NCBI GenBank assembly: GCA_965199495.1
Contig: CBDASK010000003.1
Coordinates: 416,001 to 480,000 of the forward strand
DNA length: 64,000 bases
DNA from: Abditibacterium sp.
GTDB taxonomy: Bacteria; Armatimonadota; Abditibacteriia; Abditibacteriales; Abditibacteriaceae
Direction of reading: 5' to 3'
Numbering within the stretch: position 1 is the first letter of the stretch; every line of letters begins with the position of its first letter. The notes under the pieces were generated by a model. The model ran no database searches. It saw nothing but the letters and a program-made list of their open reading frames with translations, and was not told where the DNA came from. The position numbers and the translations under genes were made by a program. This document shows positions 1,777 to 31,813 of the stretch, piece after piece.

Positions 1777-2316
1777 CTACTTTTTCTTTTTCCTGGGTTC
1801 GGCTTCGAGACCGGCAATCTTCAACAATAGACGGCCAAGGTAATAAAACCCGCGCTCCACCACTTTGAAAAAGAGCTTGATCGCGTGCATCACGATGTTC
1901 GACATCGCGGCTCGAAACTGCTTGCCCGCTTCTCCTGGCATGAACGCCGAAAGAAAGTAGAAGACGAACAGAATGATTATGACATGGGCAAACTTCTCGA
2001 CCAACCAGACGGCGGGACTTTTGAAGCCAGTTAAACCTTGGAAACTCAGGTTTGGAACCTGAGCGACGTTTAGCAGCAACCATCGTCCGCCGAAGAATAG
2101 TCCGGCCACGATGGCGAGACGACTGACCCAGCCCAGAGGAATGGAACTGGCGCCTTCTTCCAGGCTGTTGGTGCCACAAAAGTTACAAAAGAGCGCGTCG
2201 AACGGGTTGAGATGACGCGTGCGGCCCCGACAGAGCCGACCGCCAAACGATCTACCACAGTGAGTGCAAAGAGGGCCGCCACCAGAAAAGTTGCGGCAAC
2301 GCAGACAAAATCGCAT
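1777..2316 (-). CDS. Double zinc-ribbon protein with C-terminal transmembrane helices
   Basis: CLRC, CTHC and CNFC motifs followed by hydrophobic segments; divergent from the coupling protein gene. Confidence 0.75.
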   Translation of the reverse strand: MRFCLRCRNFSGGGPLCTHCGRSFGGRLCRGRTRHLNPFDALFCNFCGTNSLEEGASSIPLGWVSRLAIVAGLFFGGRWLLLNVAQVPNLSFQGLTGFKSPAVWLVEKFAHVIIILFVFYFLSAFMPGEAGKQFRAAMSNIVMHAIKLFFKVVERGFYYLGRLLLKIAGLEAEPRKKKK

Positions 2317-2382
2317 CCTTACTCCTTGGGGGTAAAATTCCCGGTGCTATTTTACACTGATGCACGGTATCTCGAAAACCTC

Positions 2383-4751: not shown

Positions 4752-5543
4752 TTCGCCAGATACGACGTTTCTGGCCTGCTCCATACCCGCTTGTCGCTCG
4801 GCGTCGATCAGAATTTTCTTCACCTCTTCCAAGGTCTGCTCCGCATTGGTAAAGATTGCGTTATATTCGTGGAGCGGTTGAAAGGCGAGCAGCTTTTCGG
4901 TGATTTGTGCTTGCTGCTCCGCGTTCAGAACCGATTCGCCTTCTGCATTTGATTCTTGCATTCTCATCATTCTATCGGTGACTTGCTGCACCTGCGTCGT
5001 CAATAAATTTAAGTCGTGAGAAATCTGCATCATCTGCTTTTCTACGGCGCGTGGCTGCTCGCGGTATTTGCGAGCGGCATCTTGCCAAGTCTCGGTGTAA
5101 GCATCAACCTGGATGCGTTTGCCCGCGATTTCTATCACCGGAGCGGCGTTGTTGGTTTCCCGTGACTCCGCATTTTCCTGAGCTTCTTCTCTTTCGATTT
5201 TGGCTTCTACCAAATCGAAAATTTCTTGATCCGTCATCGTATCAATCATATGCTCGATCTGAGCATTCTTATTTCTCGCGTTCTCAGATGCTTCTTCAGT
5301 TTTCAACTCTTGCATCGCCGATCCGAACACCTCTTGGTCGCTCATAGTGGCGGCCATACGATCGATCTCAGTTTTTCTCCTGTTTTCTGCCTCTTTAGCA
5401 TCTGATTCAGCCAATTCACGGTTCGCCTCCCCAAATACTTCTTCATCGCTCATGGTAGCAGCCATGTGATCAATTTCAGCTTTTCTTCTGGATTCTTCCC
5501 CTTGAGACGCCGCAGATTGAGAGTTAGGATTCTCGAAACTCAT
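4740..5543 (-). CDS. Hypothetical acidic helical protein with three internal repeats
   Basis: 267-aa ORF; repeats EIDHMAATMSDEEVF / EIDRMAATMSDQEVF / QIEHMIDTMTDQEIF. Confidence 0.7.
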   Translation of the reverse strand: MSFENPNSQSAASQGEESRRKAEIDHMAATMSDEEVFGEANRELAESDAKEAENRRKTEIDRMAATMSDQEVFGSAMQELKTEEASENARNKNAQIEHMIDTMTDQEIFDLVEAKIEREEAQENAESRETNNAAPVIEIAGKRIQVDAYTETWQDAARKYREQPRAVEKQMMQISHDLNLLTTQVQQVTDRMMRMQESNAEGESVLNAEQQAQITEKLLAFQPLHEYNAIFTNAEQTLEEVKKILIDAERQAGMEQARNVVSGESNS

Positions 5544-5621: not shown

Positions 5622-6263
5622 ATGCTCACCATCCCCTTGCGAATTCATCATTGGCTCCCAAAAGTGCGCGACACTCTGGGGCCAGGAACGCGCGCCATCG
5701 TTTGGGTTCAGGGCTGCACGTTGGCCTGCAAAGGTTGCATGGTGCCCGAAACATGGTCTGCGGAAAACTCGACTGCCATCGAGCCGCAAGACTTGGCGCG
5801 TCAAATCTTGGAAATGCCCAACATTGAGGGTGTGACCGTAAGCGGCGGGGAACCGACTCAGCAAGCCATTGCGGTCGCCGAACTTCTTTCTATTCTCAAG
5901 TCCAAAGGCTTAAATACCTGGCTTTATAGCGGCTACACCATCGAAGAATTAGTCGAGCGCAACGATGCGGAAACCGACCAACTTTTGAGCTGCGTGGATG
6001 TTCTGGTAGATGGCCGCTTCCAACAAGAACACGCTGGAATTTATCGCTGGCGTGGTTCGGCCAATCAACGAATTATCCACTTGACGGACGTAATTCCGCA
6101 AGCCCTGACGGAAGGCGAAGAGTCGGGCGGCGTCGAGATTACCGTTGATGCCCAAGGCGAACTCATTGTCGTGGGCGTGCCTCCGCCCCATTTTTTAGAA
6201 CAGTTTCGGGCGCGTCTAAAAGAGCGCGGGGTGACTCTGAAAAGCGATGCGGTTTGGAAATAA
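5622..6263 (+). CDS. NrdG-like radical SAM / 4Fe-4S single-cluster protein
   Basis: GPGTR-WVQGCTLACKGC (CxxxCxxC), GVTVSGGEP, YSGYT, DVLVDGRF, WRGSANQR; start ATG 5622. No nrdD in the window. Confidence 0.88.
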   Translation: MLTIPLRIHHWLPKVRDTLGPGTRAIVWVQGCTLACKGCMVPETWSAENSTAIEPQDLARQILEMPNIEGVTVSGGEPTQQAIAVAELLSILKSKGLNTWLYSGYTIEELVERNDAETDQLLSCVDVLVDGRFQQEHAGIYRWRGSANQRIIHLTDVIPQALTEGEESGGVEITVDAQGELIVVGVPPPHFLEQFRARLKERGVTLKSDAVWK

Positions 6264-6341
6264 AATTTCTCAAGAAGTGGGTTGCAGAAGCTGGTTGAAT
6301 GAATTACAGTTTGTCCGTTGCTTTAAGTTTTCGGAGTTATT

Positions 6342-8987
6342 ATGCCCGTCTCCCAGGTCCACCGCTTCCTGTATGGCATCACGCCAATGACCGTTGAAAA
6401 ACGGCTGTGGATTCTTGGCGACACTCAAACCCACGACCTCTTTTTCCACAACCTCTTTCACGGTTGCGTCAGTCTTCGCCGCACTCTGGAGTTGTGGGCG
6501 CTGGAACACGGAACCGAATTGACCGCGTTTTTGGATGCTTCTGGTGAGATAGATTTCGATGGCAACGCCGATCCAGAAGCGGCCAAGCAGCTCTTTGATC
6601 AGCTCCTTCCGAATCGCACACCTCCTGAAGGATTTACACGACGCGCGCGACGCCAACCCCCCACCACAGAGGAAGCGTCGTCCGAGTCAACCGAAGCACG
6701 GGCGCAACAGGCGGCCAACCAAACCGACGATGCTCTGGGTGGCCAAGGCGCAGGACTTCGCAACACGTTTCAACATCTCGCCCACGCATTGGGCAACCGT
6801 GAGCATCCATTTCTGCTGATCGTAGAAGATTTTCACGAATTCATCGTCAACCGACTCGAACTCAATCCAGCGCGAGTCGAAATCGCTCAAGAACTCAAAT
6901 TTACCGTCCGCAAGAAATGGCAAGAGGCCGTCACACCATCGCCCAATTTGGTGGTTTTTCTCACCGATACGCCGCACGGTTTCAGATTTTTGTCCAATGA
7001 AGCTCTACCCTATCCAACGGTCGAGCAAAGGGAGATCAAAGAACCGACGATGCCAGAAGTCGAAGCCTCGATAGAGCGGCTGGCACTGCGACATCAGTTT
7101 GGGTTGAACGGGCAAAAAGCTATCGCCAAAACTTTATTTCGGCACAAACATTTGGAAGTTTCTCTGGCTTCCATTCGACGCGTTGTCAACGAAGGAAACA
7201 TGGAGGTTACTGTGGAAAACGTCTTGAGATTGCCGCCTATTAACGAACAAGCCGTCAGCGAAATCAAAGCCGAACTTGATCGTTTGGTCGGGTTGGATGA
7301 TTTAAAAGACAAAGTGCGACGCTTGGAAACCAAGGCGCGCCAGTTCCGGCAACGGCTGGAAGATGGCGAGTCCGATCTGCCCGAAGAAACTCTACACCTG
7401 GTATTCACCGGCAAACCGGGCACGGGCAAGACGACCGTCGCCGACATCGTGGCCCGGCTGTTTCACGCTTTGGGTTTGCTACGACTGGAAACCGTTCGTC
7501 CCGTTACCGCTTCGACGCTGATGAGTTCTAACGTGGGCGGAACACGGGAAAATATGCAGCGCGAGCTGACCGAATCGCTAGGCGGTGTGCTCTTCTTGGA
7601 CGAAGCTCACCAATTTGGCGACGCTCAAAACATCGCGGCTAAAGAAGCCGTGCAGGCTATCGTGCCGATGGCGTGGAATCACCGGCACGAGTTCGTGATC
7701 ATTCTGGCCGGATACGAAAACGAAATGCACGAGTTCTACAAGATGGATGACGGTCTGGATCGCCGCTTTCCAACCTTTAATCGTGTGCATTTCCCCGACT
7801 ACACGCCGAGCGAATTATGGATAATCTTGGAGCGTAAACTCGCCAAAAGTGGTTATTCTATCGCACCCGAAGTGCAGCCACGCCTTCGTTCTATTTTGAG
7901 TCAAAGGTCACAGCGCCAGGGTTTTGGTAACGCAGGTGGCGTGGACAACTTGGTCGCTGAACTACTGGAAACTCACGCGGTTTCCTCCGATCCAAGCTCG
8001 CGTGTTTTAACCGATGAAGCGTTGCCGCTTCTGGTGCGCCGTAACGCGAGCGTCTTCGATGCTGCGCAAGCCAAGTTGGACGACATGGTGGGACTAACTC
8101 CAGTGCGTGAGAAAATCCGTAGTCTCATTGATCGCATTGAATATCAACTGCAAGAAGTCGAGGAAGGCCGAGAATCCAACCTCAAACTTCATCCCGGCAA
8201 TATGCTCTTCGTTGGGCCGCCCGGCACCGGAAAGTCAACAATTGGGGCATTAATCGCCGATCTGCTTTTCGGCTTGGGAGCTATCGAGCGACGCATCTGT
8301 CATGTTGTCTCGCGCGGCGATTTGGTCGGTCAGTTCCAGGGACACTCCGCAGCGCAGGTGCGTTTGGCAGTGGAGAAAGCGCGCGACGGCGTGCTGTTTA
8401 TAGACGAGGCTTACGGACTTTCTCTCGATCCAAGGGATACATTTGGCAATGAGGCCGTGACCGAACTCGTCCGCCAGATCACAGACGGCCAAAATAGCGG
8501 CACGACTTTCATTTTGGCGGGCTACGAAGACGCGGTGACGGAGTTCCTCAACACTAATGCGGGGTTGGGGCGTCGTTTCGGCGAAACGATTCGCTTCCCC
8601 AACTTCTCGCCCGCCGATTGCGCTGAATTGGTGCGCCGACGGTTGGAAGAAGAGAATTACAGTTGGGAGGACGGCGTTCTGCAAGCCGTCGAGCGCATGG
8701 CTGATGTCACTGCCCGCGTCACGGGAGACAATTTCGGCAATGCGGGCTGGGTCGGAACCATTGTCACTCAGGCGCTTGATCGGATGATGTCACGCGTTAT
8801 TCAAAGTTCGATGCCGCGTAGTGACGCCAATCGTCGTCGGCTTCTAATCCAAGATTTGTTGAGCGATGGTTACGAGGAAGAGATACTAACCGCCGAAGCT
8901 CCAATTGACACAGAAGAAAACGGGGCTGAATCTGAGGAAGACTGTTCTCCAGAGGAGGTGGAAACCGATGACACCTCTGGGGCTTGA
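6342..8987 (+). CDS. Tandem AAA+ ATPase, CbbX/SpoVK/EccA-type, with N-terminal extension
   Basis: Two modules: LVGL..HLVFTGKPGTGKT..VLFLDEAH..ILAGY..RRF..FPDY..FGNA and MVGL..FVGPPGTGKS..LFIDEAY..ILAGY..RRF..FPNF..FGNA. Confidence 0.9.
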   Translation: MPVSQVHRFLYGITPMTVEKRLWILGDTQTHDLFFHNLFHGCVSLRRTLELWALEHGTELTAFLDASGEIDFDGNADPEAAKQLFDQLLPNRTPPEGFTRRARRQPPTTEEASSESTEARAQQAANQTDDALGGQGAGLRNTFQHLAHALGNREHPFLLIVEDFHEFIVNRLELNPARVEIAQELKFTVRKKWQEAVTPSPNLVVFLTDTPHGFRFLSNEALPYPTVEQREIKEPTMPEVEASIERLALRHQFGLNGQKAIAKTLFRHKHLEVSLASIRRVVNEGNMEVTVENVLRLPPINEQAVSEIKAELDRLVGLDDLKDKVRRLETKARQFRQRLEDGESDLPEETLHLVFTGKPGTGKTTVADIVARLFHALGLLRLETVRPVTASTLMSSNVGGTRENMQRELTESLGGVLFLDEAHQFGDAQNIAAKEAVQAIVPMAWNHRHEFVIILAGYENEMHEFYKMDDGLDRRFPTFNRVHFPDYTPSELWIILERKLAKSGYSIAPEVQPRLRSILSQRSQRQGFGNAGGVDNLVAELLETHAVSSDPSSRVLTDEALPLLVRRNASVFDAAQAKLDDMVGLTPVREKIRSLIDRIEYQLQEVEEGRESNLKLHPGNMLFVGPPGTGKSTIGALIADLLFGLGAIERRICHVVSRGDLVGQFQGHSAAQVRLAVEKARDGVLFIDEAYGLSLDPRDTFGNEAVTELVRQITDGQNSGTTFILAGYEDAVTEFLNTNAGLGRRFGETIRFPNFSPADCAELVRRRLEEENYSWEDGVLQAVERMADVTARVTGDNFGNAGWVGTIVTQALDRMMSRVIQSSMPRSDANRRRLLIQDLLSDGYEEEILTAEAPIDTEENGAESEEDCSPEEVETDDTSGA

Positions 8988-10362
8988 ATATCAAAACTCG
9001 CGCTGGCGAGCGAGCGGAATCGGCAACGAAGATTTCCCAGAAATACTTGCCGAAGGCGAGAGCGTGGAGTCCCTGCGCACGCTTTTGCCCGACCAGAATT
9101 GGGACGCCATTACTCTGGCGCTACCATACGGACTTTTGCGGCAAGAACCTCAACAAGTTGTAGAATTACGCCAGGAGTTAGAAAGCACCTTTCCTAACGC
9201 TGAAATCCGCGTAATTCCGCGTGCCGTCGCCGCTTCTGTTGCCGCGCTCTGGCCGAGGCGCACACCGGATCAAACCAAATTGCCCCTATTCGAGGGGCAA
9301 CATATCCTGGTTTGTTCTTTTGGCAACGAAAGCAGCGATTTCTTTATCATTCAGCGTGGGTCGGAAGAGTTGCCTTTGGTAGTAGTCAAGCAGCACACCA
9401 TTGCTTTTTCGAGCGAAGCTGTTGATGCCGCCTTAGTTGATGCTCTGCGGAATGCAAATCAACCAGTTGACAAAATTGCGCCTGAAATCATCGCTGGGTT
9501 ACGGCGCACTATCAGCCGAAATCTGAGTCGCGCCGTCGCAGGCCGCAAGGTAATTCCTGCGAGGGCGAAGTGGGCCGACGGACACGGTGTTGAAGTTCAA
9601 ACTGCATTGTCTGCCGAGCTTTACTTGGAAACTCTTGAAGTATTGCTTTCTGAAGCGCGCGAGAACCTGATTTCATTTTTGCAAGAACAGCAGTTAGATT
9701 TGCAATCTATCGCGCTATGCGGCGACGGGGCAGATATTCACGGAGTTCAGCAAAACATTGTAACTGCGGCTTTAACCCAAGTTTACGGCGCCGGAAGTTC
9801 CCTGCTCCAGCACCAAATTTCCGTCTTCTCGCCCCATGAGTTGGTAGCAACTGGCGCTGCTCTTTTGGCAGAAGGTAAAATATCATTTCAACAGAAATTA
9901 CCGTATAATGTTGGCGTCAGAATGCAAGTTGAGCCAAATAGTGCGTTGGCGGAATTGTTAAAACTACCAAAGGATTCGGCGGATTTTTGGCTCTATCCTT
10001 TGCTGTCACAGGGAACGGCATTGCCAGCACATTTTTGCAGTGAAGATTTAGAGATGTTCAATGTGTTGGAGGAAGGAGAAACTCTCGATTGGGAGTTGTA
10101 TTTAGCCGATGAGAGGACTCAGCATCAAAAATCTCAATCTTTGTGCTTCGACACACGAGCATCTACTGTTGTAAATTGGGAAATACTGGCGGACGCTCAA
10201 GGAACATTACATTCAAGATTTAGCGATGAAAACTCGCGGCAACTTGGCCATCAAGAAATTGAGTGGTTCGCCTCCAATTTGCCAAGTGCCGAAACGGGCA
10301 CTTTACCAACTATTTCCCCTGCTCAACTGAAGTATCAGCTTGATGCACAACAGAATGTTTGA
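8968..10362 (+). CDS. Degenerate Hsp70/actin-fold protein
   Basis: Hsp70-like motifs in order but decayed: ITLALP, IRVIPRAVAAS, ILVCSFGNESSD, IALCGDGADIHGVQ, PHELVATGAAL. GGAGG RBS before ATG 8968. Confidence 0.65.
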   Translation: MTPLGLEYQNSRWRASGIGNEDFPEILAEGESVESLRTLLPDQNWDAITLALPYGLLRQEPQQVVELRQELESTFPNAEIRVIPRAVAASVAALWPRRTPDQTKLPLFEGQHILVCSFGNESSDFFIIQRGSEELPLVVVKQHTIAFSSEAVDAALVDALRNANQPVDKIAPEIIAGLRRTISRNLSRAVAGRKVIPARAKWADGHGVEVQTALSAELYLETLEVLLSEARENLISFLQEQQLDLQSIALCGDGADIHGVQQNIVTAALTQVYGAGSSLLQHQISVFSPHELVATGAALLAEGKISFQQKLPYNVGVRMQVEPNSALAELLKLPKDSADFWLYPLLSQGTALPAHFCSEDLEMFNVLEEGETLDWELYLADERTQHQKSQSLCFDTRASTVVNWEILADAQGTLHSRFSDENSRQLGHQEIEWFASNLPSAETGTLPTISPAQLKYQLDAQQNV

Positions 10363-10386
10363 TCGGGCTTCAAATTTGGAATCGCT

Positions 10387-11451
10387 ATGCAAACCATCTC
10401 TCCTCAAAGTTCTGCCCCCTTGACCAATTTGCTCGGCGCCTTGCGGCGTCGGCGCAACTCTATCGCTTGGTCGGAATGGTTGCCGATTATCACCTTAGAT
10501 GCCGCAACGCCCGGCACATGGTTTCATTCGTTTAACGCGTTACCTGTCGATGAGCAGTGTGACGTGCTGGACTTACTGCTACGCCCAGATGCGGGGCCAC
10601 TATCAAACGTGCTTCTGATTGGTCTGGCCGCTCAAGCCGATCAGATCGAGGATGAGCAGGTGCGGCAAACCATTCTGCATGAAGTCGCTTCGGCGTGGGA
10701 AGCCAGCCTCGACGCCGTTAAGCATCAACTAAAATCGCTGAAGTCCAATGTTAGTAACTTTCAGAAAAGAGAGAGCGAGGCGTTTGATCTCGCGGCGAAC
10801 ATCCTGGAATCGGAGGGCGAATTAGCCGAACTGAGAGCCAACGAGTTCGAGATGGAAGAAGCATTCAGTCGGCTTCACGCTCTGGAAAGTAATTGTCAAG
10901 ATTTAGAGCGCCGCAAGAGAACTCTCGCACTTTATGATTTCAAGAAATCTGAAGAACGAGTTCAAACGCTGCAAAGCGAGTTGGAACAGGGCGAAGTTGA
11001 ACGTGCCGAGCTTGAAAGCGCAATCCAATCCTTAGACACTGACCTGAAGCGGTTGCGCGCCGATGTGGATAGCGCCAAAGTGCGGCAAACCGTTTTGCAA
11101 CCGGAAGTCGCCGGATTGGAAGCGGAACAGAACGAGTTGCGGAGTTCTGTTGCCGACGCACAAGCCTTAATTACGCAATTGCGCGATAGCAATGCAACGG
11201 CTCGCGCGCGCAAGAAAGAGTTAGAAGCAGAACAGCAAACACTCCAAACCCAGGCTGATAACATCGCGGCGGAAACAAGCGAGTGGACGACCAAATGCAA
11301 TCGTGAGCGCGAACGGCTCGAACAGTTACAGCGCGATGCCGAGAGCGCCCAGCGCACCGACATCAGTGACAAAATTAGCGAAGTCTTTCAACTTTTGCCC
11401 GCCGACCGAGCGGACGAAGGTTTTCATGCGACAGCAGGTAGCCGCAGCTAA
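10387..11451 (+). CDS. Long coiled-coil protein
   Basis: Heptad-rich E/Q/L sequence over most of 354 aa after a small globular N-terminus. Confidence 0.8.
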   Translation: MQTISPQSSAPLTNLLGALRRRRNSIAWSEWLPIITLDAATPGTWFHSFNALPVDEQCDVLDLLLRPDAGPLSNVLLIGLAAQADQIEDEQVRQTILHEVASAWEASLDAVKHQLKSLKSNVSNFQKRESEAFDLAANILESEGELAELRANEFEMEEAFSRLHALESNCQDLERRKRTLALYDFKKSEERVQTLQSELEQGEVERAELESAIQSLDTDLKRLRADVDSAKVRQTVLQPEVAGLEAEQNELRSSVADAQALITQLRDSNATARARKKELEAEQQTLQTQADNIAAETSEWTTKCNRERERLEQLQRDAESAQRTDISDKISEVFQLLPADRADEGFHATAGSRS

Positions 11452-11511
11452 ATTGCTGCGCGTTGTCTGCATCAACCTACTTTTTGCCAGTCATTTCAAG
11501 GAGAAAATACT

Positions 11512-13020
11512 ATGAGCGGCCCCAAAAGAGCGGATGTCGAAGCCCAATTGAAAGCAGCACAAAACGGCAAGCGCAAATGCGCCACGCTAATCGCCGATTC
11601 CGAGGTGCGCGCCCTGCTGCACCAGTTAAGAACAGCCGACAAGCTGGAAAACGAAGCGGCTCGCGTGTCCCACGAAGCGTCGCAGGCTCTCGACGGCCTG
11701 ACGCCCGAACTGCGTAATGCGGCGGGCGAAATTTTGTCCGATGTGACTTTTTTGGTGAACGAAGCGGCCAACCAAGCCCGTAATGCCAAAGTTCAAGGCG
11801 AGGAGGTTCGCGGTCTGCTCGACAGCGCACAAAATCAAGCGCGTAGCGCCGAAGCCACGCACAACAGAGCGACCCAAGCCCTCGATAGCGCCCAAGCCGC
11901 GCTGAGTGCCAAAGGCGGTCATTACCTGAGCGCCGAAATGCAGCAAGCCAGAGGCGCGACTCAACTCTTCAATCAGGCCGAGCAGGAGTTGGGTGAAGCC
12001 GCGCGGATTCGGCAGCAAGCCGCAGGACGCGCCAGCGACGCAATTCGCCGCGCGGAAGAGGCTAAAGCGACGGCTCGAAGCGCGGTGCAACGGGCGCAAA
12101 CCTTGCGGGCCGAAGCGCAAAAGCGCGTGAAAGCTGAGGAAGAAGCGCGCCGCATCGCCGAAGAGAAACAGCGACAAGCAACTCTGGCACTGAATAGTGC
12201 TCGAAGCGCGCTGGATTCGTTGCGTGATTCGTCGCACCAAAAGTTCCGCCCTGGCGCCTTAGCCGAGATGGAAAATTTGGTCAACACTGCCCAAAGCAAA
12301 CTGAACAGTGAGCAGTGGGACGAGTGCGTTCGCCAAGCCGAAGGGATCGAAAAACGTGGGCAACGGTTGATTCAAGAGATCGCCGAAGCGCAACGTGAAT
12401 ACGAGCGCAAACGGGCCGAATCGGAATCCCACATCCAAACTCTTTTGTCCGCGATTGACGGCGCCGACGGCGTGCGCATTAAGCAGTGGGCCGACGCGCC
12501 AAACGCTTACGCCGAAGCAGAAAAGGCGGCTCAATCCGCGCGCGAGGCGTTGAAGAGTGAAGCGTGGAGCGAAGCCAACTTCCTTTCGCAAAACGCACAG
12601 TCAAAATTGACACAGGCCATCGAAAGCGCGGCGCGCAACCAAAGTCAAGACGAAGTTCGCACCGAAATTGGCGAGGCTGTAATGGATGTTTTGGAAGACT
12701 TGGGCTTCGAGGTCTCTTCTAAAAACGGCTCTCGCAGCGAACCACTCCGCATTAAAGGCCAGACGCCTGATGCAAAGGGACGCGGTGATTTCGACGTTTC
12801 CATTCCCCTGTCAGGCGAAGTGGATTTCCACGTCGAAACGCCCGATGGCAGCACAAGCTGCGTCGCCGCCGTGCGCGAGTTACAAGACCGTTTGAAAGCG
12901 CGCGGCGTGAACTGGGAAACGACTGATTGGGGCCATGCTCAAGGCGCTGAGAATGCTGGGGGCAAAGTCAAAAGAACAGTCACTCAGACAGAACAAACCA
13001 AAATCAAGCAAACCCGTTAA
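11512..13020 (+). CDS. Ala/Gln-rich coiled-coil protein with small alpha/beta C-terminal domain
   Basis: AAGGAG RBS; helical repeats then VMDVLEDLGFEV...SCVAAVRELQDRLKARGV. Confidence 0.82.
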   Translation: MSGPKRADVEAQLKAAQNGKRKCATLIADSEVRALLHQLRTADKLENEAARVSHEASQALDGLTPELRNAAGEILSDVTFLVNEAANQARNAKVQGEEVRGLLDSAQNQARSAEATHNRATQALDSAQAALSAKGGHYLSAEMQQARGATQLFNQAEQELGEAARIRQQAAGRASDAIRRAEEAKATARSAVQRAQTLRAEAQKRVKAEEEARRIAEEKQRQATLALNSARSALDSLRDSSHQKFRPGALAEMENLVNTAQSKLNSEQWDECVRQAEGIEKRGQRLIQEIAEAQREYERKRAESESHIQTLLSAIDGADGVRIKQWADAPNAYAEAEKAAQSAREALKSEAWSEANFLSQNAQSKLTQAIESAARNQSQDEVRTEIGEAVMDVLEDLGFEVSSKNGSRSEPLRIKGQTPDAKGRGDFDVSIPLSGEVDFHVETPDGSTSCVAAVRELQDRLKARGVNWETTDWGHAQGAENAGGKVKRTVTQTEQTKIKQTR

Positions 13021-13047
13021 AGCTCAACGGATCAACTTTCCACGATT

Positions 13048-14307
13048 ATGCCCTCGCTCACCCTTGCGCTTTCGCATCCGCAATCCGTCGCCCGCTTTGA
13101 AGCGGCGGCGGAAGAGTTGCTGTGCGCGCAAGGGTTTTGGGACGAGACAATCGAAGCCAAACTCCGGCAAGAAGCGCAGGGTTTGCACGCGCTCGATGTC
13201 GAGCCGGTGACGAGAAAGGTGCGCGGTTTGGATTCGGTTCAGGAAGCGTTTGCAGAAGAGGCGCGCAAAAGGCCGCACGAGAAATGGTTTGAGTTAGTTT
13301 CAACCTCACCCTTTAAGTTGGCGATCATCGTTGATAATTCGGATAGCTCTTGGCCTTATGCCGAATCCATCGCCGAATACGCGCGCGAGTTGGAAGCAGC
13401 CGCGCAAGCGATGGGCGCCGTTCAGTTTTGGGCGTGGGATCAACCGACGGCAAGTTGCGCTTCGGCGATAAACGCCAGCCGAGGCAACGCCAGTTTGTTC
13501 GCGCCGGTGTGGAACAAGTTGAAGCCCGAATTGGAGACGGGCACGGTTACACACGCGATAGTGTTGGGCGCGGGACAACTGTTTGACATCGAGGATTACG
13601 CGGAAGAAGAGGCTATAAAAGACGTTAAGTTCGTTCCTTTGGCCCAAACGCTAACCGATGACATTATCCCTGAATATAGGCTTGATCCGGCCCAACTGCT
13701 CGCACAGATGACAGCAGCCAACAGCACTTGCTCCATCGGTAGCGAGGGCGCGATTCCAGTCTGGTGGGATGATCCGGCGTGGGTTTGGAATGGGAAGAGA
13801 TTGGAGTTCAAACAGGAGAATTCTAACGCGCGCTTTGGTTTGCGCTCGGCGTGGCTGTGCGCGGATGGTCAAACGCCTAATGTCAAGTCGGATGTGGATG
13901 CCGCTACTCTGCAAGTTCATTCGGCTGCCGTTCCATTCTCGAATCAACATCGCTGGCAAAACACGCATTACCAGACCGATTCGCTACCCGATTCCGTGAC
14001 CGATTTTCGCCTTTCGAGCGGCCATGAAGCGGACGCCCAAGACATCTCGCCTCTGGAGTTGGCGCCAGAACAAAAAGGTTGGCTGTGGCTCTCATTCAGT
14101 GAGAATCCGGCGTCAAAAGGGCGTTATGACGTGCAGTTTTGCGTTCATCCGACGGGTGCTGTCGTGCTTCAGGAAAGCGTTGAGGTGGCGTTGTCGCAAA
14201 GCGACGGCATTCACGTTTACCGATTCCGCAATGATCGCTGGGAAAGCCGTCTACTTTCGCAATCCCATCTCAAAATTAAGGAGAATATTTATGCGTTTGC
14301 TTTGTGA
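13048..14307 (+). CDS. vWA-like domain protein
   Basis: AIIVDNSDSS (MIDAS DxSxS), later ASLFAP and IVLGAG at the positions of the usual T and TDG motifs (degenerate). Confidence 0.55.
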   Translation: MPSLTLALSHPQSVARFEAAAEELLCAQGFWDETIEAKLRQEAQGLHALDVEPVTRKVRGLDSVQEAFAEEARKRPHEKWFELVSTSPFKLAIIVDNSDSSWPYAESIAEYARELEAAAQAMGAVQFWAWDQPTASCASAINASRGNASLFAPVWNKLKPELETGTVTHAIVLGAGQLFDIEDYAEEEAIKDVKFVPLAQTLTDDIIPEYRLDPAQLLAQMTAANSTCSIGSEGAIPVWWDDPAWVWNGKRLEFKQENSNARFGLRSAWLCADGQTPNVKSDVDAATLQVHSAAVPFSNQHRWQNTHYQTDSLPDSVTDFRLSSGHEADAQDISPLELAPEQKGWLWLSFSENPASKGRYDVQFCVHPTGAVVLQESVEVALSQSDGIHVYRFRNDRWESRLLSQSHLKIKENIYAFAL

Positions 14308-14947
14308 CGACGGTTTCCCGATGCTGGAGTTGCCCAGCTACGGCTTTGTCGTGGGAGCTTTGCCGTTTACCAAAGCGCAATATGAAAAGCTGTGGGCGCT
14401 CGTTGGTTGCCCGCGCAATTTGCCGCAGGAAGAAACACCGTTTAGTGACAATTGCTACGATGGATGTCTCGCGCTCAATCCTCGTCCCGCGAAGCAGTCG
14501 AAGATTATAAAGCCGCTCAACTTTTGGCTAACCGGCCTCTCGCCACAGCACACGGAGAGATTGCTTTCTCATCTGCCCAATGCCCGTTTGCCGGAGTCAC
14601 AAATTTGGTTGAACGTCGAAAAGTATCTGAGCCAAAAACCGTTTACCGACGAGGACAAATTGCAGTGGGAACAGTTGGAGTTGAGCGAAGCCGCGCGCCA
14701 TGCCGTTCGAGTTTTGTGGGGACAGAAGAAGCCACATAACTGGGCACAAGCCACTGCACTTCAAGATGGCATTTTGGAATGGGTCAAGTGGCAACAGGAC
14801 TCATGGGACAGAAATGCCTCTGACGTGGGAGCTTTAGGCAGCCCGCAGGGGACTTCTTTTGTGCCGCAGCTTGACGGGCCGCGTCGCCATAGCGCAACGG
14901 ACCAACCGGATGGGTGGAACGGATTTAGAGTTTGGAAAACTTTGTAA
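14291..14947 (+). CDS. FGE-sulfatase (SUMF1)-like domain protein
   Basis: PFTKAQYEK, ARLPESQIW, GILEWV and terminal GFRV match the spacing of FGE-fold motifs; AAGGAG RBS before ATG 14291. Confidence 0.65.
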   Translation: MRLLCDDGFPMLELPSYGFVVGALPFTKAQYEKLWALVGCPRNLPQEETPFSDNCYDGCLALNPRPAKQSKIIKPLNFWLTGLSPQHTERLLSHLPNARLPESQIWLNVEKYLSQKPFTDEDKLQWEQLELSEAARHAVRVLWGQKKPHNWAQATALQDGILEWVKWQQDSWDRNASDVGALGSPQGTSFVPQLDGPRRHSATDQPDGWNGFRVWKTL

Positions 14948-14951
14948 CGCC

Positions 14952-16646
14952 ATGAGCCATGCCAACACTATCAGTGCGCGCCAACTGATCTACACCAACG
15001 TCGAAGCCGACCAATCGCCCAGTAAGCGAGCCGGCTTTCAGATTCTGCTCGCCAGCAAAGGCATCAGTGAGGCTGACAAAGCGGAGGTTTCGCAAAGACT
15101 GGTCTATAGTTCTCCATCTAAAGAGAACGCGCCCACAAAAAACGTTTTCTATCCGACGCAGAGCGGCGATTTGCTGTTGGCGCAAATTGTTTTGCTGCCT
15201 GAACCTGACGGCGCCAACAGGTTCGGTCGCTATCTCGCGCACGCGCTGATATTTTCGCCCGCAGAATTTGAAGAGTTGAACAACGATCCATTTCCGATTT
15301 TCGAGAATTTCAGTTTCCTCGTGACAGTCCAAGCCGCTTTGGAGCGTGGCGACCGAGTAACAGGCGAAATCGCCGCAGAAGGCAGAAGCTCCGCAGAATG
15401 GGACAGAACGGGTTTGGATTCCACCCTTTCGAGAACGCGAATTTTGGACGAAGTAGATTCGCAGAACCGCCGACAACTGCTGTTGCTCGCCACGCAACTC
15501 GCCAGTAACGAGAACGAACGCAACTCGTTGGCGCTGTTTGGCGAGCCGACGACGGCTTACCGATATCTTTCGGCTTTGATAGCCATCACGCCCAAATCTC
15601 TGCGGCCTCGGTGTAGCTTCGACACGTTCGCTGGCGGCGGCAACTTGAACTCGGCGCATTACTGGGCGGTCGGACTACCCGCCGAAGCGCAACGAACGTC
15701 GCGTTTGTTCGCTTTCAACCTCGCACAAGAAGAATTTGACCAGGAGATTTTTCGCTCGCCTGAAACGACTTACCAAAAATGGTTGGACGAACAGAGCCAC
15801 CGCAAGGCATCGGAGATCGCCGAAGAGTCGGGTGTCGTGGCGCAGTTTATGGAGTGGTTGGAAAACCCAGAGACACGTTTAGTTCCACCACAAAATCGAG
15901 CAGAAAGTTTGGTGTTAACAACATTGACAAATCTCAACATGAACGCAATTGAGAAACGATTGCAGGATCGGTTGACGCAGCAAACCGGCGAGTATCTGGC
16001 GCCGGTGCTGGCGCCTCAAATCATTTCACCTCTGCTGCTTCAGCACTCCATTGGCAGCGCAATTACGATTTGTCAAAGAGGTTTTACCCTCGATCAGTTG
16101 GAGGATTCTACTCGGACGCTGTGCGTTAATTCAAAAATTGGTTTAACCCCTGATGTTTTAAGCGACATCGAAAGGTTTGCCAATGCCAACAACCTCAATC
16201 AACTCAAATTGGCAGTTTTGCGTTTAGCTCAACAGTGGGAACAGCTCACTAATGCACTGCACAAAGCCTCGGAGAGCGACTACCAATTTTTTGCGAACTG
16301 GGCTTTGGAGTCTCTACCGATACGTTTGCAGTGGAATATTGAACACAAAGGTAGTAGCCTCTCGTTTGGGCCGGAACTTAAGCTCGTAGGCGCGCAGAAA
16401 TCGGACCTTGAAGCAGATTTTTGTCCCTTGCTCTACGCACTTTTGGGTAAAACTTGGCCGGAGCAAACAAGTTGGTTCAATCCGGTCAGAAGACACCGCG
16501 AAGACGTTCCCGCGCACCCAAACATCAGGCGCTGGTTTTGGTTGATGGATGAACTCGAAAAAAGACACGACCAACGCACCCAACACAATCGTTCTTCAGC
16601 GCCAATTTCCACTCGCAAAATGAACCCAAATCCGTTTAAACGCTGA
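14952..16646 (+). CDS. GAP1-like (GTPase-associated protein 1, N2-type) protein
   Basis: N-terminal QLIYTNVE...AGFQILLAS...DGANRFGRYLAHALI, middle LIAITPKSLR..SFDT; directly upstream of a TRAFAC GTPase as in GTPase-centred ternary systems. Confidence 0.7.
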   Translation: MSHANTISARQLIYTNVEADQSPSKRAGFQILLASKGISEADKAEVSQRLVYSSPSKENAPTKNVFYPTQSGDLLLAQIVLLPEPDGANRFGRYLAHALIFSPAEFEELNNDPFPIFENFSFLVTVQAALERGDRVTGEIAAEGRSSAEWDRTGLDSTLSRTRILDEVDSQNRRQLLLLATQLASNENERNSLALFGEPTTAYRYLSALIAITPKSLRPRCSFDTFAGGGNLNSAHYWAVGLPAEAQRTSRLFAFNLAQEEFDQEIFRSPETTYQKWLDEQSHRKASEIAEESGVVAQFMEWLENPETRLVPPQNRAESLVLTTLTNLNMNAIEKRLQDRLTQQTGEYLAPVLAPQIISPLLLQHSIGSAITICQRGFTLDQLEDSTRTLCVNSKIGLTPDVLSDIERFANANNLNQLKLAVLRLAQQWEQLTNALHKASESDYQFFANWALESLPIRLQWNIEHKGSSLSFGPELKLVGAQKSDLEADFCPLLYALLGKTWPEQTSWFNPVRRHREDVPAHPNIRRWFWLMDELEKRHDQRTQHNRSSAPISTRKMNPNPFKR

Positions 16647-16706
16647 ATCAACAACCTCTTTTTTCTACCCGTTAAGCTCTCGAAAATTCGCTATTCCTAA
16701 TCCGCC

Positions 16707-17927
16707 ATGAACAGGTCATCTACTGCCGCCAAACAAAGAAAGCTTTGCCCTATGTGCTTGAAGTTCGTGGACGAGTTCTCCGTCGAGGAGGGCGCGGACG
16801 GTTCTTCGGTGCAAAGGTGCCCAGAGTGTGACAATGACGTGCCCTGGCTTTATGTGAGTGATTACGAGAAGTTTCCTCCAGCAGTTTTCAGCGTCATCGG
16901 GTTTCGGAGTCACGGCAAATCCGTGTTCTTAGGCAGCCTTTTTCACGAACTAACAGCCGCCGCCACTGCAAACTCACCCAAGGAATGGCCGCACTTTTCT
17001 TATTCATCGCTCGACCAGGCGGGCATGGATCAAGTTCTTGAAATTAAAAGGAATTTAGAAGACCGCAAGCTACCCGCGCCAACTTTAGAATCGTTTTTTC
17101 AACCCGCAATTTTGAAGATGAGGAACTTGCCCCAATTTGGCTCGCGGCACCTGTTGGCCTACGACACATCGGGAGAACTACTGCAACAAACCGCCAGAAT
17201 CAAAAGCTACCAAAAGGGTTATATCAGCCGAGTTTCTACGATTGTGTTGATCGTGAGTTGGAAGCAATTGGATGTCGCCGAACAATCAAAATATCATCTG
17301 GACGAGTTAATCACCATCTACCGAGAAGCGTTGATTTCCCTGGGCGGCGATCCACAGCAGCAAAGTTTGCTGGTTGTTTTGAGCAAAGGCGACCGCCTGT
17401 TGGGAGAATCAGGTTTGCCCGAACGCGTGACCGAGTTCTTGAAGCCCATCGCAGCAAACGAAAACGGTCAAGGCGTTCACGAAAACGGAGATGCCGCGCA
17501 TTTCGCGCGACTCGACACGCTGTCGCAGGAAATCGAGTTATGGCTGGAAGGCCAAAGGCACTTCAGCACTTTCGTGCGTGAAGCGCGCGCAGAGTTTCAC
17601 CGCGTCGAGTATTGCGTGGCAACAGCGACCGGACATGAGGCCAAAGATAACGTTTTACCCTACGATATCGCGCCGCGCGGAGTGCTTTCGTCTTTGCTGT
17701 GGACATTACGCCTCCAGACGCCCGACGCCCAGGAAGAGCAAGCCCACAAAGCCACTGTCGCCCAGGCCAAGAAACTTTTAGAGCATAGAGATTACGTCAA
17801 ATTCTTTCGTCAAGCCAATCGAGACAAGGATCGGCTACACGCGTTGGATTTTCTCACGGTTGGACGCGGGCGCACCCTGCCCGCAAAGAAATTAGTGTTG
17901 GAATTTAGAAACCGCAGTGAGAGCTGA
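16707..17927 (+). CDS. TRAFAC-class GTPase (DO-GTPase-like) with N-terminal zinc ribbon
   Basis: CPMC..CPEC; G1 GFRSHGKS, G2 PAPT, G3 YDTSGE, G4 SKGD, G5-like TATG. Confidence 0.82.
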   Translation: MNRSSTAAKQRKLCPMCLKFVDEFSVEEGADGSSVQRCPECDNDVPWLYVSDYEKFPPAVFSVIGFRSHGKSVFLGSLFHELTAAATANSPKEWPHFSYSSLDQAGMDQVLEIKRNLEDRKLPAPTLESFFQPAILKMRNLPQFGSRHLLAYDTSGELLQQTARIKSYQKGYISRVSTIVLIVSWKQLDVAEQSKYHLDELITIYREALISLGGDPQQQSLLVVLSKGDRLLGESGLPERVTEFLKPIAANENGQGVHENGDAAHFARLDTLSQEIELWLEGQRHFSTFVREARAEFHRVEYCVATATGHEAKDNVLPYDIAPRGVLSSLLWTLRLQTPDAQEEQAHKATVAQAKKLLEHRDYVKFFRQANRDKDRLHALDFLTVGRGRTLPAKKLVLEFRNRSES

Positions 17928-17964
17928 TGCAGACAAGTTCGACTAAACGAAGGAGATTACAAAC

Positions 17965-18819
17965 ATGGATACAAATTCACCAGATCACGACGTTTTCGGT
18001 GCAGCGAGCCAAGACCTTCAAAACGAAGCTAACACCTCAACTGGAGCTTTTAAGCTCTTCGGCACCATCGCTGTGCTTGCCGTTCTCGGAGTCGTTTCTT
18101 GGATGGGATGGCAGAGTTACTCTTCCAAAAATGAGGTTGCCGTAGCGCCACAACCAACGATTCAAGTAGCAGCAGCGCCTGAAACACCTGTTGCCGCTCC
18201 TGCCTCTGAAACTGCCGATGACCATGATGAACACAAGGCAAATCCGGCTGTTTCGGCGGAAGAGGCCGAAGGCGCGCATCACAAGCATTTCGAGGCCCAG
18301 GGCGCTCTGGTAACTAATCACGAAATCGCGTTATTCATGGAGACACAAAAGGCAGGCGGCGTCTCACCCTCTGAACGCGCGCAAATCGTGACGCAAAGAC
18401 TGAATGAGACGGCGGAATCTACTGGGCTTGACCCAGAAAAAATTGTGGCTCGGATGGAAAACGATTTGGCAACGGTTTACTACGCCAAGCCAGGCAAAGC
18501 GGGCTATGTTTTGGCGACCGTTGATCCCAAGACAGCCGCACAATTCGGTTTCGGCAAAAACCCTGCGCTTCTGACATATTGGTGGCGCGATGTTTTGCGA
18601 GATCATGCGTGCATTATTGCGGGCAATCCACCAATTTATACCACACCTTATTCGAGTATTTTGCAGAGGGTTTACTCGCTCTGTCAGGCAGAGCAAAAAG
18701 GAGTTCCTACTCACGAAAGTTTTGAAACCGCCATCAGCAAACTTTCGCGCGAAGAACACGATGCGTTACAGGGGCTTTATGTTCAGGTGCCCACCAACTA
18801 TCGTCCCCAGACCGATTAA
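17965..18819 (+). CDS. Single-pass membrane protein with His-rich linker and extracytoplasmic domain
   Basis: AAGGAG RBS; TM segment LFGTIAVLAVLGVVSWMGW; last gene before a terminator. Confidence 0.75.
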   Translation: MDTNSPDHDVFGAASQDLQNEANTSTGAFKLFGTIAVLAVLGVVSWMGWQSYSSKNEVAVAPQPTIQVAAAPETPVAAPASETADDHDEHKANPAVSAEEAEGAHHKHFEAQGALVTNHEIALFMETQKAGGVSPSERAQIVTQRLNETAESTGLDPEKIVARMENDLATVYYAKPGKAGYVLATVDPKTAAQFGFGKNPALLTYWWRDVLRDHACIIAGNPPIYTTPYSSILQRVYSLCQAEQKGVPTHESFETAISKLSREEHDALQGLYVQVPTNYRPQTD

Positions 18820-18832: not shown

Positions 18833-18868
18833 AAAATCCCCGTATCTTAATTGGTGCGGGGATTTTTT
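18833..18868 (+). terminator. Rho-independent terminator ending the 10-gene operon
   Basis: AAAATCCCCG...CGGGGATTTTTT stem with T run. Confidence 0.75.
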
Positions 18869-18885
18869 GTTGCGCGGAAGCAACA
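18868..18885. promoter_or_regulatory. Palindromic operator GTTG-N8-CAAC (copy upstream of parB)
   Basis: TGTTG CGCGGAAG CAACA; the same motif recurs upstream of other element genes. Confidence 0.65.
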
Positions 18886-18977: not shown

Positions 18978-20585
18978 GTGAAACTTGAAAACTCACCCTC
19001 TCCCCAGGTCAATGGCATGGCTTACGGCCCGTCCCATCGCCCCGCAACGAAATCTGAGCCACCAGCCCAGCCCAAAGCCGCTCCCGCCAACTGGCAGATC
19101 GTAATGATCCCCGTCGGTCAGATCGGCCCCAACCCGTATCAGCCACGCTTGCAGTTCGATGAGGAAGAGATGACCGAACTGATCGCCAGCGTGCGCGAAC
19201 GCGGCGTGCAACAACCGATCCTGGTTCGCACGACGCCGACTTCCAAAAGTGACGAAAGTGAGAAGCCGACACAGCAATACCAACTGGTCGCGGGCGAACG
19301 ACGTTTGCGGGCCTGCAAAGCCGCTAAACGTCGCCTTATCCCCGCCATCGTGCGCGACGACTTGAGCGATGTGCAAGCGGCTGAATTGGCACTTTTGGAG
19401 AACGTGCAACGCTCCAACCTTAACGTCATCGAAGAGGCCAGAGCTTTTCGGCGGCTGATGCTCGACTTTCGCATGAAGGAAGAGCGCATCGCCAAAAAGG
19501 TGGGCAAATCGGTGGCGACGGTGAAAGACACGCTGCGTTTGCTGGCACTACCAAGCGAAGTTCAGACGCTGATGATCGCGCGTAAGCTGACGGCTTCGCA
19601 CGGCCAACAGTTGCTTCGATTGGCACCTTTCGAGTCAGTGTGCCGCGAAGTGGCGCGCCGAGCAGCGACTGAAGGCATTCCGGCGACGGCGCTTTCGCAA
19701 GAGCCATTGCCAGGTGCCCGTCAACTCCGCGATAGCAAGCTGATTGTGGAACTGGACTTTCGCACCCGCTTCGACTGGAAGAGCGAATGCGGTTCTTGCC
19801 CGCATAAGGCTTACGTTGTGAGCGGCTACCATTCGTATTGCCTCAAGCCCGACGAATGGCAACGCAAGCAAAACGAAGCTATCGAACGAGCCAAACAGGA
19901 AGCGGCGCGTGTGCTGGACGAAGCCAAGCAGAACGACAACGGCGAAGTGGATACCGAGTCACTACCGCCTGGTTCGTATCGTGATTTGACTCACGCGCAA
20001 TTGCCCGCCGGATGCTGCGAAGTCTGCCCGTGTCGCGGCGAGACCACTGATCCGCGTGATCCAACGCAAAAGAAGCCTATTTGTCTGGCGCCAGAACGCT
20101 TTGCCGAACTGGTGCGCGCCGAACGTCAGGCTCACGAAGAAGCGCGCCAACGCAAATTCACCGAGTTCTGGCGCGAAGCACTGCGACGCTTAAACGACGC
20201 AGAGCAGGAACCCGTCGTCTCTTGGGCGACGCTTGCGCTTTGGCCCCTCGTCAAGGGCACGCATCTGCGCTACGGAGAACAGCAAAGCTGGAATGAACTG
20301 GGGCAGCAGGTCGCAACCGAACTCTCACTCGATTTGCCTTGGCAACTCTGGCAGGACGAGGAAACTTCGACCGACCAGCTTCTCACCGAGTTGAAGCGGG
20401 TCGAAACCAACGATCTGCTGCGATTCTTCGGCGCTCTTCTGCTCGCGCAGGAGGCGCTTCAAGCGATTCGCTACGGCGATGAAACGCCACTACTTTCTGC
20501 TGTTCTGGGCCACCAGACGGCGACTCAAGGAGAACTCTCCAATTCAGACGAAACGGAATCTTCCGATTCCGACGAAGAAGAGTAA
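18978..20585 (+). CDS. ParB/Spo0J family protein with Cys-rich C-terminal region
   Basis: PNPYQPR, GVQQPILVR, YQLVAGERRLRA, ENVQRSNL, HTH; later CGSC..C and CEVCPC..C modules. Confidence 0.9.
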   Translation: MKLENSPSPQVNGMAYGPSHRPATKSEPPAQPKAAPANWQIVMIPVGQIGPNPYQPRLQFDEEEMTELIASVRERGVQQPILVRTTPTSKSDESEKPTQQYQLVAGERRLRACKAAKRRLIPAIVRDDLSDVQAAELALLENVQRSNLNVIEEARAFRRLMLDFRMKEERIAKKVGKSVATVKDTLRLLALPSEVQTLMIARKLTASHGQQLLRLAPFESVCREVARRAATEGIPATALSQEPLPGARQLRDSKLIVELDFRTRFDWKSECGSCPHKAYVVSGYHSYCLKPDEWQRKQNEAIERAKQEAARVLDEAKQNDNGEVDTESLPPGSYRDLTHAQLPAGCCEVCPCRGETTDPRDPTQKKPICLAPERFAELVRAERQAHEEARQRKFTEFWREALRRLNDAEQEPVVSWATLALWPLVKGTHLRYGEQQSWNELGQQVATELSLDLPWQLWQDEETSTDQLLTELKRVETNDLLRFFGALLLAQEALQAIRYGDETPLLSAVLGHQTATQGELSNSDETESSDSDEEE

Positions 20586-31656: not shown

Positions 31657-31795
31657 CACGACAAAAGTCGCCTTCCGCAAGCGGATAAGCGACCTTCCCC
31701 GGCTCCTTGTCCAAGAGTGGGTCAGCCGAGGCTGCCGCGCTCTCAGACCGGTCTGCCCTTTCAATTTATCCAATCCGCAAAGTCAAAGCTCATCG

Positions 31796-31813
31796 TGTCG
31801 CGTGTCGGCAACT
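31796..31813. promoter_or_regulatory. One-mismatch copy of GTTG-N8-CAAC upstream of rep-like gene
   Basis: TGTCG CGTGTCGG CAACT. Confidence 0.4.

Follow-up and report, generated by a model that had tools for sequence, protein, structure and literature searches.

A radical SAM-AAA+-Hsp70 module adjoining a GAP1-GTPase module in a mobile-element cargo hotspot of Abditibacterium: a candidate composite conflict system

Genes of the g1-g10 locus

The window analyzed here is a 64,000-nucleotide stretch of an Abditibacterium genome (contig CBDASK010000003.1), and the locus in question comprises ten open reading frames (ORFs), g1 to g10 (5622-18819), placed between the relaxase and the ParB gene of an integrative element. 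All ten lie on the + strand with a spacing of -20 to 78 nt, and two pairs, g2/g3 and g6/g7, overlap. The likely starts of g1 (5622), g3 (8968), g7 (14291) and g8 (14952) were taken from homologues and from Shine-Dalgarno-like sequences, which were seen upstream of g3, g5, g7 and g10; for g1, the start agrees with the homologues. As judged from sequence, the locus is a hybrid of two modules: module A (the pentad g1-g5), which is a rare SpoVK/Hsp70 form of a radical S-adenosylmethionine (SAM)-AAA+ cassette, and module B (g6-g9), of GAP1/DO-GTPase type. We infer that the two also function together. An initial annotation of this DNA had described co-directional, tightly packed or overlapping genes sitting as cargo between a relaxase and parB, and our analysis agreed on both points (Replic_Relax upstream, ParB downstream). 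Its family calls were borne out as well: an NrdG-like radical SAM protein, a tandem EccA/SpoVK-type AAA+ protein, a decayed Hsp70, two coiled-coil proteins, vWA-like, FGE-like and GAP1-like proteins, a zinc-ribbon TRAFAC GTPase and a membrane-anchored last product.

Module A is made up of an orphan NrdG-derived radical SAM enzyme, a tandem SpoVK-type AAA+ ATPase, an Hsp70 nucleotide-binding-domain protein and the helical proteins g4 and g5. The radical SAM gene, g1 (5622-6263, + strand), matched Fer4_12 (5.9e-36); its best NCBIfam model was NrdG (TIGR02491), at 118.2 bits, under the equivalog cut-off of 126.1. The CxxxCxxC, SAM-binding GGE and RGSxNQR motifs were invariant in 18/18 sequences of the family, and a C-terminal extension of ~50 residues was conserved within it. 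A search for NrdD and glycyl-radical domains (PF13597, PF01228) found none in the 95%-complete genome of the window; among the 14 reference genomes that served as controls, 6 and 3 gave positive results. The window's genome holds no second g1-family gene. On the score and the missing partner domains, a housekeeping NrdG identity of g1 was rejected.

The AAA+ protein g2 (6342-8987, + strand) carries two AAA domains, with Walker A and B motifs read from the translation of both. It matched SpoVK (6e-92), EccA (5e-87) and CbbX (6e-80), in each case below the equivalog cut-off (307 versus 423, 293 versus 467 and 269 versus 459 bits, respectively). By these scores g2 belongs to the SpoVK/EccA/CbbX clade and is the orthologue of none of its members; a type VII secretion EccA or a CbbX identity was discarded on the same grounds. 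Its family-specific N-terminal domain of ~300 residues is rare, with 32 clusters among 1.84 billion representatives. Trypsin_2 was present at the C terminus in 14 of the 21 relatives of at least 830 residues that were scanned (10 fragments and the window's own protein were left out), so that the commonest form of the family is an unfoldase-protease fusion; window g2 has no Trypsin_2. The architecture of such trypsin-like fusions (e.g., L033:711-3947) resembles that of an ATP-dependent protease.

The product of g3 (8968-10362, + strand) is a truncated, catalytically degenerate Hsp70 nucleotide-binding-domain protein. No Pfam match was obtained with g3 itself; its orthologue in G096, an Abditibacterium metagenome-assembled genome, matched HSP70 (PF00012, 6.9e-19) over the nucleotide-binding domain, and Hsp70 clusters were listed for g3 by Atlas. 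The phosphate-1 and phosphate-2 motifs are retained in 4/6 family members. Window g3 and P0002, the only other truncated relative (on an 8.8-kb contig), lack the N-terminal phosphate-1 segment and have a degenerate phosphate-2 motif, and therefore appear to represent a maintained, truncated and catalytically dead form. With its ATP-binding motifs missing or degenerate, g3 could not be an ATP-driven partner of the AAA+ protein in the pair that had been proposed. In one metagenome relative (L035:5595-7380), the pentad Hsp70 gene is split into two overlapping ORFs by a frameshift or an assembly error.

Both remaining proteins of module A are helical. The coiled-coil protein g4 (10387-11451, + strand) is specific to the SpoVK-type pentad, and g5 (11512-13020, + strand) is an elongated helical protein whose model (pLDDT 87) ends in a small conserved alpha/beta domain of four strands and a helix. 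Fold searches with g5 returned nothing beyond generic long-helix proteins (best Foldseek E 0.034; best VIA Z 14.0, a value usual for helical models), and the similarity (Z 9.1) that its C-terminal domain showed to the N-domain of spermine synthase was too weak for use. In the alignment of the g5 family, an MSG N terminus is conserved in all members, together with an invariant Trp and an invariant Arg, and a cysteine of the C-terminal domain is conserved in most; these are candidate sites of modification by the radical SAM enzyme. A complex prediction for g1 with g5 scored 0.00, which is no verdict and counts neither way.

Module B combines vWA, FGE/FGS-like, GAP1-N2 and zinc-ribbon DO-GTPase2 proteins and is a GTPase-centric system as predicted by Kaur et al. 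in 2020. Its first gene, g6 (13048-14307, + strand), encodes a protein with a DxSxS motif and a beta-rich C-terminal part. Residues 87 to 225 of its model matched the vWA fold (Z 11.6, rmsd 2.9, 137 aligned residues), and the model matched the NorD vWA domain with a Z of 10.7; overall pLDDT was 56, with low confidence in the beta-rich part. A comparison of the g6 family with Pfam-positive vWA proteins was weak (hhalign 10.7%), and g6 is thus called a putative vWA protein on its fold match. The C-terminal zinc ribbon of g6 relatives has been lost from the window copy. Next comes g7 (14291-14947, + strand), a reduced FGE/FGS-like protein of C-type-lectin fold. Window g7 had no direct Pfam match; FGE-sulfatase (PF03781) was passed by 2/7 members of its family, and the family profile aligned with bona fide FGE proteins (hhalign 74.8%, E 2.6e-5). 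The GAP1 protein g8 (14952-16646, + strand) has an N2-type N-terminal domain (GAP1-N2, PF20013, 1.1e-12; score 48.6 bits, cut-off 24), and g9 (16707-17927, + strand) is a DO-GTPase2 (PF19993, 6.4e-8; score 33 bits, cut-off 27). The g9 protein has a CxxC...CxxC zinc ribbon at its N terminus, and GxxxxGKS, DxxGE and SKxD motifs were read in its translation.

The last gene, g10 (17965-18819, + strand), encodes a single-pass membrane protein of a family that was not recognized, and its transmembrane-like segment is the only one among the ten products. It gave no usable Atlas match and no PDB sequence match, and its family counts 17 clusters. A g10 homologue (47.5% identity) occurs in the corresponding hotspot of G266 together with vWA_4, kinase and DUF6166 proteins and none of g1-g9, and no g10 relative was found in the other GAP1 or pentad loci examined. 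Hence g10 probably goes with the element, as separate cargo, and the system that had been drawn with ten genes is reduced to nine. The single shared terminator that had been assigned to all ten was not supported either: the scan listed 22 terminator-like sites where 24.2 were expected, which is not above chance, and the sole candidate after g10 is a weak hairpin at 18868-18885.

Occurrence of the two modules and of their parts

We surveyed 401 genomes of the phylum and found g3 homologues in 2 and g8 homologues in 15 of them. The pentad occurred without g6-g10 in 4/4 other loci, namely, in G096 and on three metagenome contigs. In G096, g1-g5 are present in order, at 60, 47, 30, 32 and 36% identity, with no g6-g10, and are followed by a 203-residue protein, a TPR protein and an ankyrin protein. 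A radical SAM gene is adjacent in four of the five pentad loci, window included. On the contig L033, the AAA+ protein carries a fused trypsin-like protease at its C terminus, and the pentad has no adjoining radical SAM gene; L034 has a divergent radical SAM gene with a kinase and PP2C downstream; and on L035, PIN, TacA-GNAT and HicB genes and two FGE-sulfatase proteins stand on the flanks of the pentad. Taken together, the flanks of module A contigs comprise PIN, TacA-GNAT, HicB, WD40, kinase/PP2C and FGE proteins. A profile search of genome contigs with the g3 alignment returned only G096, and no relative was found on viral contigs, which were searched with a narrower alignment.

The GAP1 modules, in turn, lacked g2-g4 in all 11 loci examined. 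Fourteen other genomes had matches; three of them, G321, G268 and G048, were omitted because their matches were weak or short. Among the 11 loci, several of them on contigs of merely 5-9 kb, g6 was found in 6, g7 in 7, the GTPase in 6, a Clp-D2-type AAA+ in 4 and a radical SAM gene in 2. The initial annotation had asked whether the ten genes travel together; g1-g5 stood alone in all four other loci, and the full set was seen in one lineage only. Its joining of two halves held in part: the halves are separable (4/4 and 11/11 loci apart), and they are linked by the shared part types g1, g5 and Clp-type AAA+.

This linkage was seen in G084, a genome of the same genus with the same element backbone, in which the genes read Clp-D2-type AAA+ (AAA_2, 1e-52), g6-like, g7-like, GAP1, g1-like radical SAM, DO-GTPase2, a g5-like protein of 497 residues and a 172-residue protein. 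The same set, in differing orders, was observed in G051, G142 and G236, with the radical SAM-GTPase pair of G142 on contig L075 and that of G236 on L073. In G084, GAP1 and the GTPase stand on either side of the g1-family radical SAM gene, and in the other three genomes this gene adjoins the GTPase; in all four genomes, the AAA+ gene is directly upstream of the vWA gene and the radical SAM gene directly beside that of the GTPase. G084, G142 and G236 also have a g5-like protein in their GAP1 clusters (jackhmmer 2e-11 to 8e-32, and alignment). Module B of the window has no Clp AAA+, radical SAM or g5-like gene of its own, and module A occupies the Clp position.

The g1-family radical SAM is itself common, with matches in 59/401 genomes at E<=1e-10. 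Eight of the 20 best g1 neighborhoods read radical SAM, g5-like protein, Clp AAA+; in four, Clp stood beside the radical SAM gene with no g5-like protein detected, and in two, a DO-GTPase stood beside it. The remaining six had no Clp, g5-like or DO-GTPase gene, five of these six contigs being shorter than 8 kb. The long radical SAM/Clp cassettes extend into vWA, FHA, PP2C and Ser/Thr kinase genes. By alignment, g5 is orthologous to the helical protein that Clp-type cassettes carry. The window has all three core genes, radical SAM, helical protein and AAA+ unfoldase, with an AAA+ of another subfamily than in most members, and module A is a rare subtype of this widespread cassette. We found no name for or description of the radical SAM cassettes in the literature searched.

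An IQ-TREE phylogeny of 18 radical SAM proteins grouped them by gene context and not by taxonomy. Support was 99/98 for the GTPase-linked clade, 100/98 for the Clp-FHA-kinase clade and 100/99 for the radical SAM-helical-Clp clade. The SpoVK clade (96/97) holds the window protein and one long-branched Clp-type row, L066; a long-branch warning applies to both L025 and L066. The radical SAM enzyme is the common denominator of the cassettes.

The setting of these genes is a cargo hotspot. The backbone TrwB-relaxase ... ParB-DUF932-PDDEXK is common to the window, G096 (L003/L004), G084 (L025) and G266 (L091), and the cargo between relaxase and ParB differs across the four genomes. In G096, a type I restriction-modification system lies between ParB and DUF932; an IS110 transposase is present in the G084 element; and the ParB/DUF932/PDDEXK genes of G266 seem fragmented. 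The position of the cluster between relaxase/coupling protein and ParB, and the resemblance of g2 to EccA, could suggest accessory genes of the conjugative element, that is, EccA-like secretion or transfer chaperones accompanied by a housekeeping NrdG. However, module A was also found on metagenome contigs that have no conjugation genes, g1-g9 are missing from G266 although its backbone is the same, no other type VII part was seen in the window, and g1 scores under the NrdG cut-off in a genome without NrdD or a glycyl-radical enzyme. This explanation is already largely refuted, and we consider it highly improbable.

A second explanation takes g1-g9 for a machine with no role in defense, in which a GTPase-switched, chaperone-driven apparatus would assemble or remodel envelope-proximal or cytoskeleton-like coiled-coil structures during a stress response or development. 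The long helical proteins g4 and g5 are consistent with such an apparatus. Moreover, the available text of Kaur et al. 2020 (PMC7159879) notes, for GAP1-N2 systems, cytoskeleton-like assemblies and a role close to the membrane, and that of a PSP survey (bioRxiv 10.1101/2020.09.24.301986) connects membrane stress with DO-GTPases and with tandem AAA+ proteins. Against this, none of g1-g9 has a transmembrane segment, and g5 resembled PspA/ESCRT-III no better than any helical protein does; a PspA/ESCRT-like reading of g4 and g5, which gave no PspA_IM30 match, was dropped. The patchy distribution (g3 and g8 being confined to the few genomes given above) and the variable mobile-element hotspot, close to restriction-modification, toxin-antitoxin and TIR genes, likewise argue against it, and a non-defense machine seems unlikely to us.

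One composite system or two neighbors

We favor, at about an even chance, the reading that the nine genes g1-g9 (5622-17927), carried as hotspot cargo by an integrative conjugative element, together make up a single composite conflict system gated by NTPases, which would probably act in abortive anti-phage or anti-mobile-element defense. An integrated system is favored because module B lacks here the parts that its relatives have and module A stands in the position of their Clp AAA+. The arrangement recurs in other samples: the contigs X3 (11743-13685, 79 differences) and X7 (12514-14950, 92 differences), from two other studies, span the g5-g6 junction at ~96% identity, and X2/X6, from a third study, are identical pieces across it. 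The indels listed in these bridging contigs are in-frame, compensated or intergenic. The nearby E2-E1-JAB fusion, Mrr and TIR proteins provide a conflict context.

Alternatively, the pentad and a minimal vWA-FGS-GAP1-GTPase set could be separate conflict systems that lie side by side in one hotspot with no mutual dependence, and we regard this as possible though distinctly less probable. In its favor, each module was found alone, and the relaxase-ParB hotspot carries unrelated cargo in G096, G084 and G266. However, the nearest module B architectures, those of G084, G051, G142 and G236, do include an AAA+ gene upstream of vWA and a radical SAM gene by the GTPase, and the part types missing from module B of the window are the very ones that module A supplies, at the AAA+ position. 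The g5-g6 gap, moreover, is 27 nt long, and the terminator scan listed no terminator-like site on the + strand in this interval.

Several observations nevertheless weigh against a single system. Matches to both g3 and g8 occurred in 1/401 genomes, the window's own, and the full g1-g9 combination was observed in this lineage only. The bridging contigs attest that the arrangement is maintained; coming from close relatives, they attest no independent origin. Elsewhere, each module is self-sufficient: the minimal GAP1-GTPase-vWA sets of G167 and G391 have neither AAA+ nor radical SAM, and GAP1 and the GTPase are missing, within their contigs, from all four other module A loci. The window radical SAM falls in the SpoVK clade, that of the pentads, so that co-adaptation with the GTPase module cannot be claimed. 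A glycyl-radical motif was absent from the module proteins, with matches in just two short ORFs that are probably spurious, and no FNIII domain, listed by Kaur et al. for GAP1-N2 systems, was matched by Pfam in g1-g10 at E<=0.01. The promoter and terminator scan gave nothing above chance, and with no PADLOC system matched, the assignment to defense is drawn from context alone.

If g1-g9 do form one system, the GTPase/GAP1 pair, together with the vWA and lectin-like FGS proteins, would sense an invader or envelope signal and act as the switch, the vWA and FGS proteins serving as binding adaptors. The AAA+ motor would then unfold or remodel the helical g4/g5 scaffold, with the dead Hsp70 (g3) as a passive adaptor; in most relatives, the AAA+ unfoldase would feed its fused protease. 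This remodeling might free or arm the radical SAM enzyme, whose effector chemistry would be directed at a protein or nucleotide target.

A broader and more tentative proposal, which we think unlikely to hold in full, is that the orphan NrdG-derived radical SAM enzyme is the common effector of immune cassettes gated by different NTPases (Clp-AAA+/kinase, SpoVK-AAA+/Hsp70 and GAP1/GTPase), this operon being a hybrid with two gates on one enzyme. The AAA+ protein would here release the radical SAM enzyme from the helical g5 protein or present g5 to it, and the product would be a protein-based radical or a modified nucleotide. If true, this would be a radical-based immune chemistry separate from that of viperin.

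GTPase-centric systems and AAA+/vWA "ternary" systems are among the largest predicted classes of bacterial immunity, and their effectors are mostly guessed; we found no experimental test of either in the literature searched. At least four cassette types have in common a small NrdG-derived radical SAM enzyme that is left without its substrate. Since it recurs in this way and its phylogeny tracks partner type, it is a concrete candidate for the output step, and one that can be assayed. The window offers a natural experiment, in which a GAP1/GTPase module seems to borrow its AAA+ and radical SAM parts from another module, and therefore a compact 12-kb construct for testing the interdependence of the modules. 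The locus thus gives a motive to seek new radical chemistry in immunity.

The remainder of the element and its surroundings were also inspected. Upstream of the cargo lie a serine recombinase (2-1546, - strand), a TrwB-like coupling protein (2212-3876, + strand) and the Replic_Relax relaxase (3873-4751, + strand); ParB (18978-20585, + strand) marks the far side of the hotspot, and DUF932 and PD-(D/E)xK nuclease genes and a second serine recombinase (23805-25421) complete the mobile-element genes of the window. Between relaxase and g1, a 267-residue acidic protein with three internal repeats of ~35 residues (4740-5543, - strand) has no Pfam match and no relative among the loci examined. Just beyond the second recombinase, the stretch 25453-28850 (- strand), which holds a 758-residue protein fusing Prok-E2_A, ThiF (E1) and Prok-JAB domains and, just downstream, a 374-residue protein without Pfam match (27726-28850, - strand), resembles a compact ubiquitin-like conjugation conflict system. 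A defense-island-like region (29979-36081) follows, with helix-turn-helix, Mrr-type restriction endonuclease, YdjM membrane, phage Rep-O-like, pentapeptide-TIR fusion and DUF6166 proteins, the last of which is also present in the hotspot of the G266 element. Beside the island, an RND efflux set (AcrB-family pump, HlyD/CusB-like fusion protein and outer-membrane factor) with DUF305 and a multicopper oxidase (37674-50008) looks like a copper or metal resistance cluster. The G+C content is 0.47-0.57 in the first ~36 kb of the window and 0.55-0.66 from ~42 kb to its end.

Comparison with known systems

The search of PADLOC-DB v2 matched no system; its matches were generic AAA/coiled-coil ones, to IetA, LmuB and JetC, and one to pVip that was weak (2.8e-4). 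With no named match found in the literature searched either, we concur with the initial annotation, which did not recognize the full combination as a described system. Its statement that GAP1, a GTPase and vWA/FGE domains characterize GTPase-centered conflict systems agrees with the available text of Kaur, Burroughs, Iyer and Aravind (eLife 2020, PMC7159879), in which the GAP1-N2 systems are predicted in silico. Shared with these are GAP1-N2, a TRAFAC DO-GTPase2 with an N-terminal zinc ribbon, a vWA protein and mobility, as well as an FGS-domain protein, which that text reports for planctomycete versions, and an Hsp70 "theme," reported for some versions. In contrast, GAP1 is typically downstream of the GTPase in the systems described there, whereas g8 precedes g9 here, an order likewise seen in G084, G167 and G391. 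An FNIII-repeat protein, GrpE and DnaJ were not detected at this locus, and its Hsp70 is truncated and, by its motifs, presumably inactive. The main text of Kaur et al. names radical SAM only for FtsH ternary systems and contains no SpoVK, EccA or CbbX; it mentions no radical SAM, SpoVK- or Clp-type AAA+ or g5-like protein with GAP1-N2.

The NrdG/PflA activases share with g1 the Fer4_12 fold, the GPGxR...GCxxxCxxC, GGE and RGSxNQR motifs and the small size. The differences are the sub-cut-off score, the genome without an NrdD or glycyl-radical domain and the C-terminal extension; no glycyl-radical motif was found in the neighbors of g1.

The MoxR-vWA pairs (NorQ-NorD; the ternary systems of Kaur et al.) are similar in that an AAA+ protein is coupled to a vWA/MIDAS protein. 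Here, however, the AAA+ is not of MoxR type, and its coupling to g6 is suggested by gene order alone.

The TerY-P triad of vWA, PP2C and Ser/Thr kinase has been validated as a defense system. It resembles the present locus in using a vWA protein as the adaptor of a switch module in conflict operons, and relatives of the window system carry vWA-FHA-PP2C-kinase; the window itself, in contrast, has the vWA-fold g6 only (no PP2C or Pkinase match was found in g1-g10). TerY-P triads are called defensive cassettes in the available text of the CoCoNuT paper (PMC11090510), and we found no description in the literature of TerY-P combined with radical SAM. The same text describes CoCoNuT extensions in which tandem SpoVK-type AAA+ genes are inserted between vWA genes, and Hsp70-like domains predicted as poor ATPases. 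According to it, only the C-terminal ATPase domain of the CoCoNuT SpoVK proteins keeps its motifs, whereas both domains of g2 do. By analogy, CoCoNuT would be a useful comparison, and it is a different system.

The last comparison is with the Clp-D2 cassette of radical SAM, helical protein, AAA+, vWA, FHA, PP2C and kinase. Common to both are the orphan NrdG-derived radical SAM enzyme, the g5-family C-terminal domain, an AAA+ unfoldase and a vWA protein right after the AAA+ position, which in the window belongs to module B. The window differs in that its AAA+, which has an N-domain of its own, is of the tandem SpoVK/EccA type and not a single Clp D2-type protein, in the addition of an Hsp70 nucleotide-binding-domain protein and a second coiled-coil protein, and in having GAP1 and the DO-GTPase in place of the kinase/FHA/PP2C switch.

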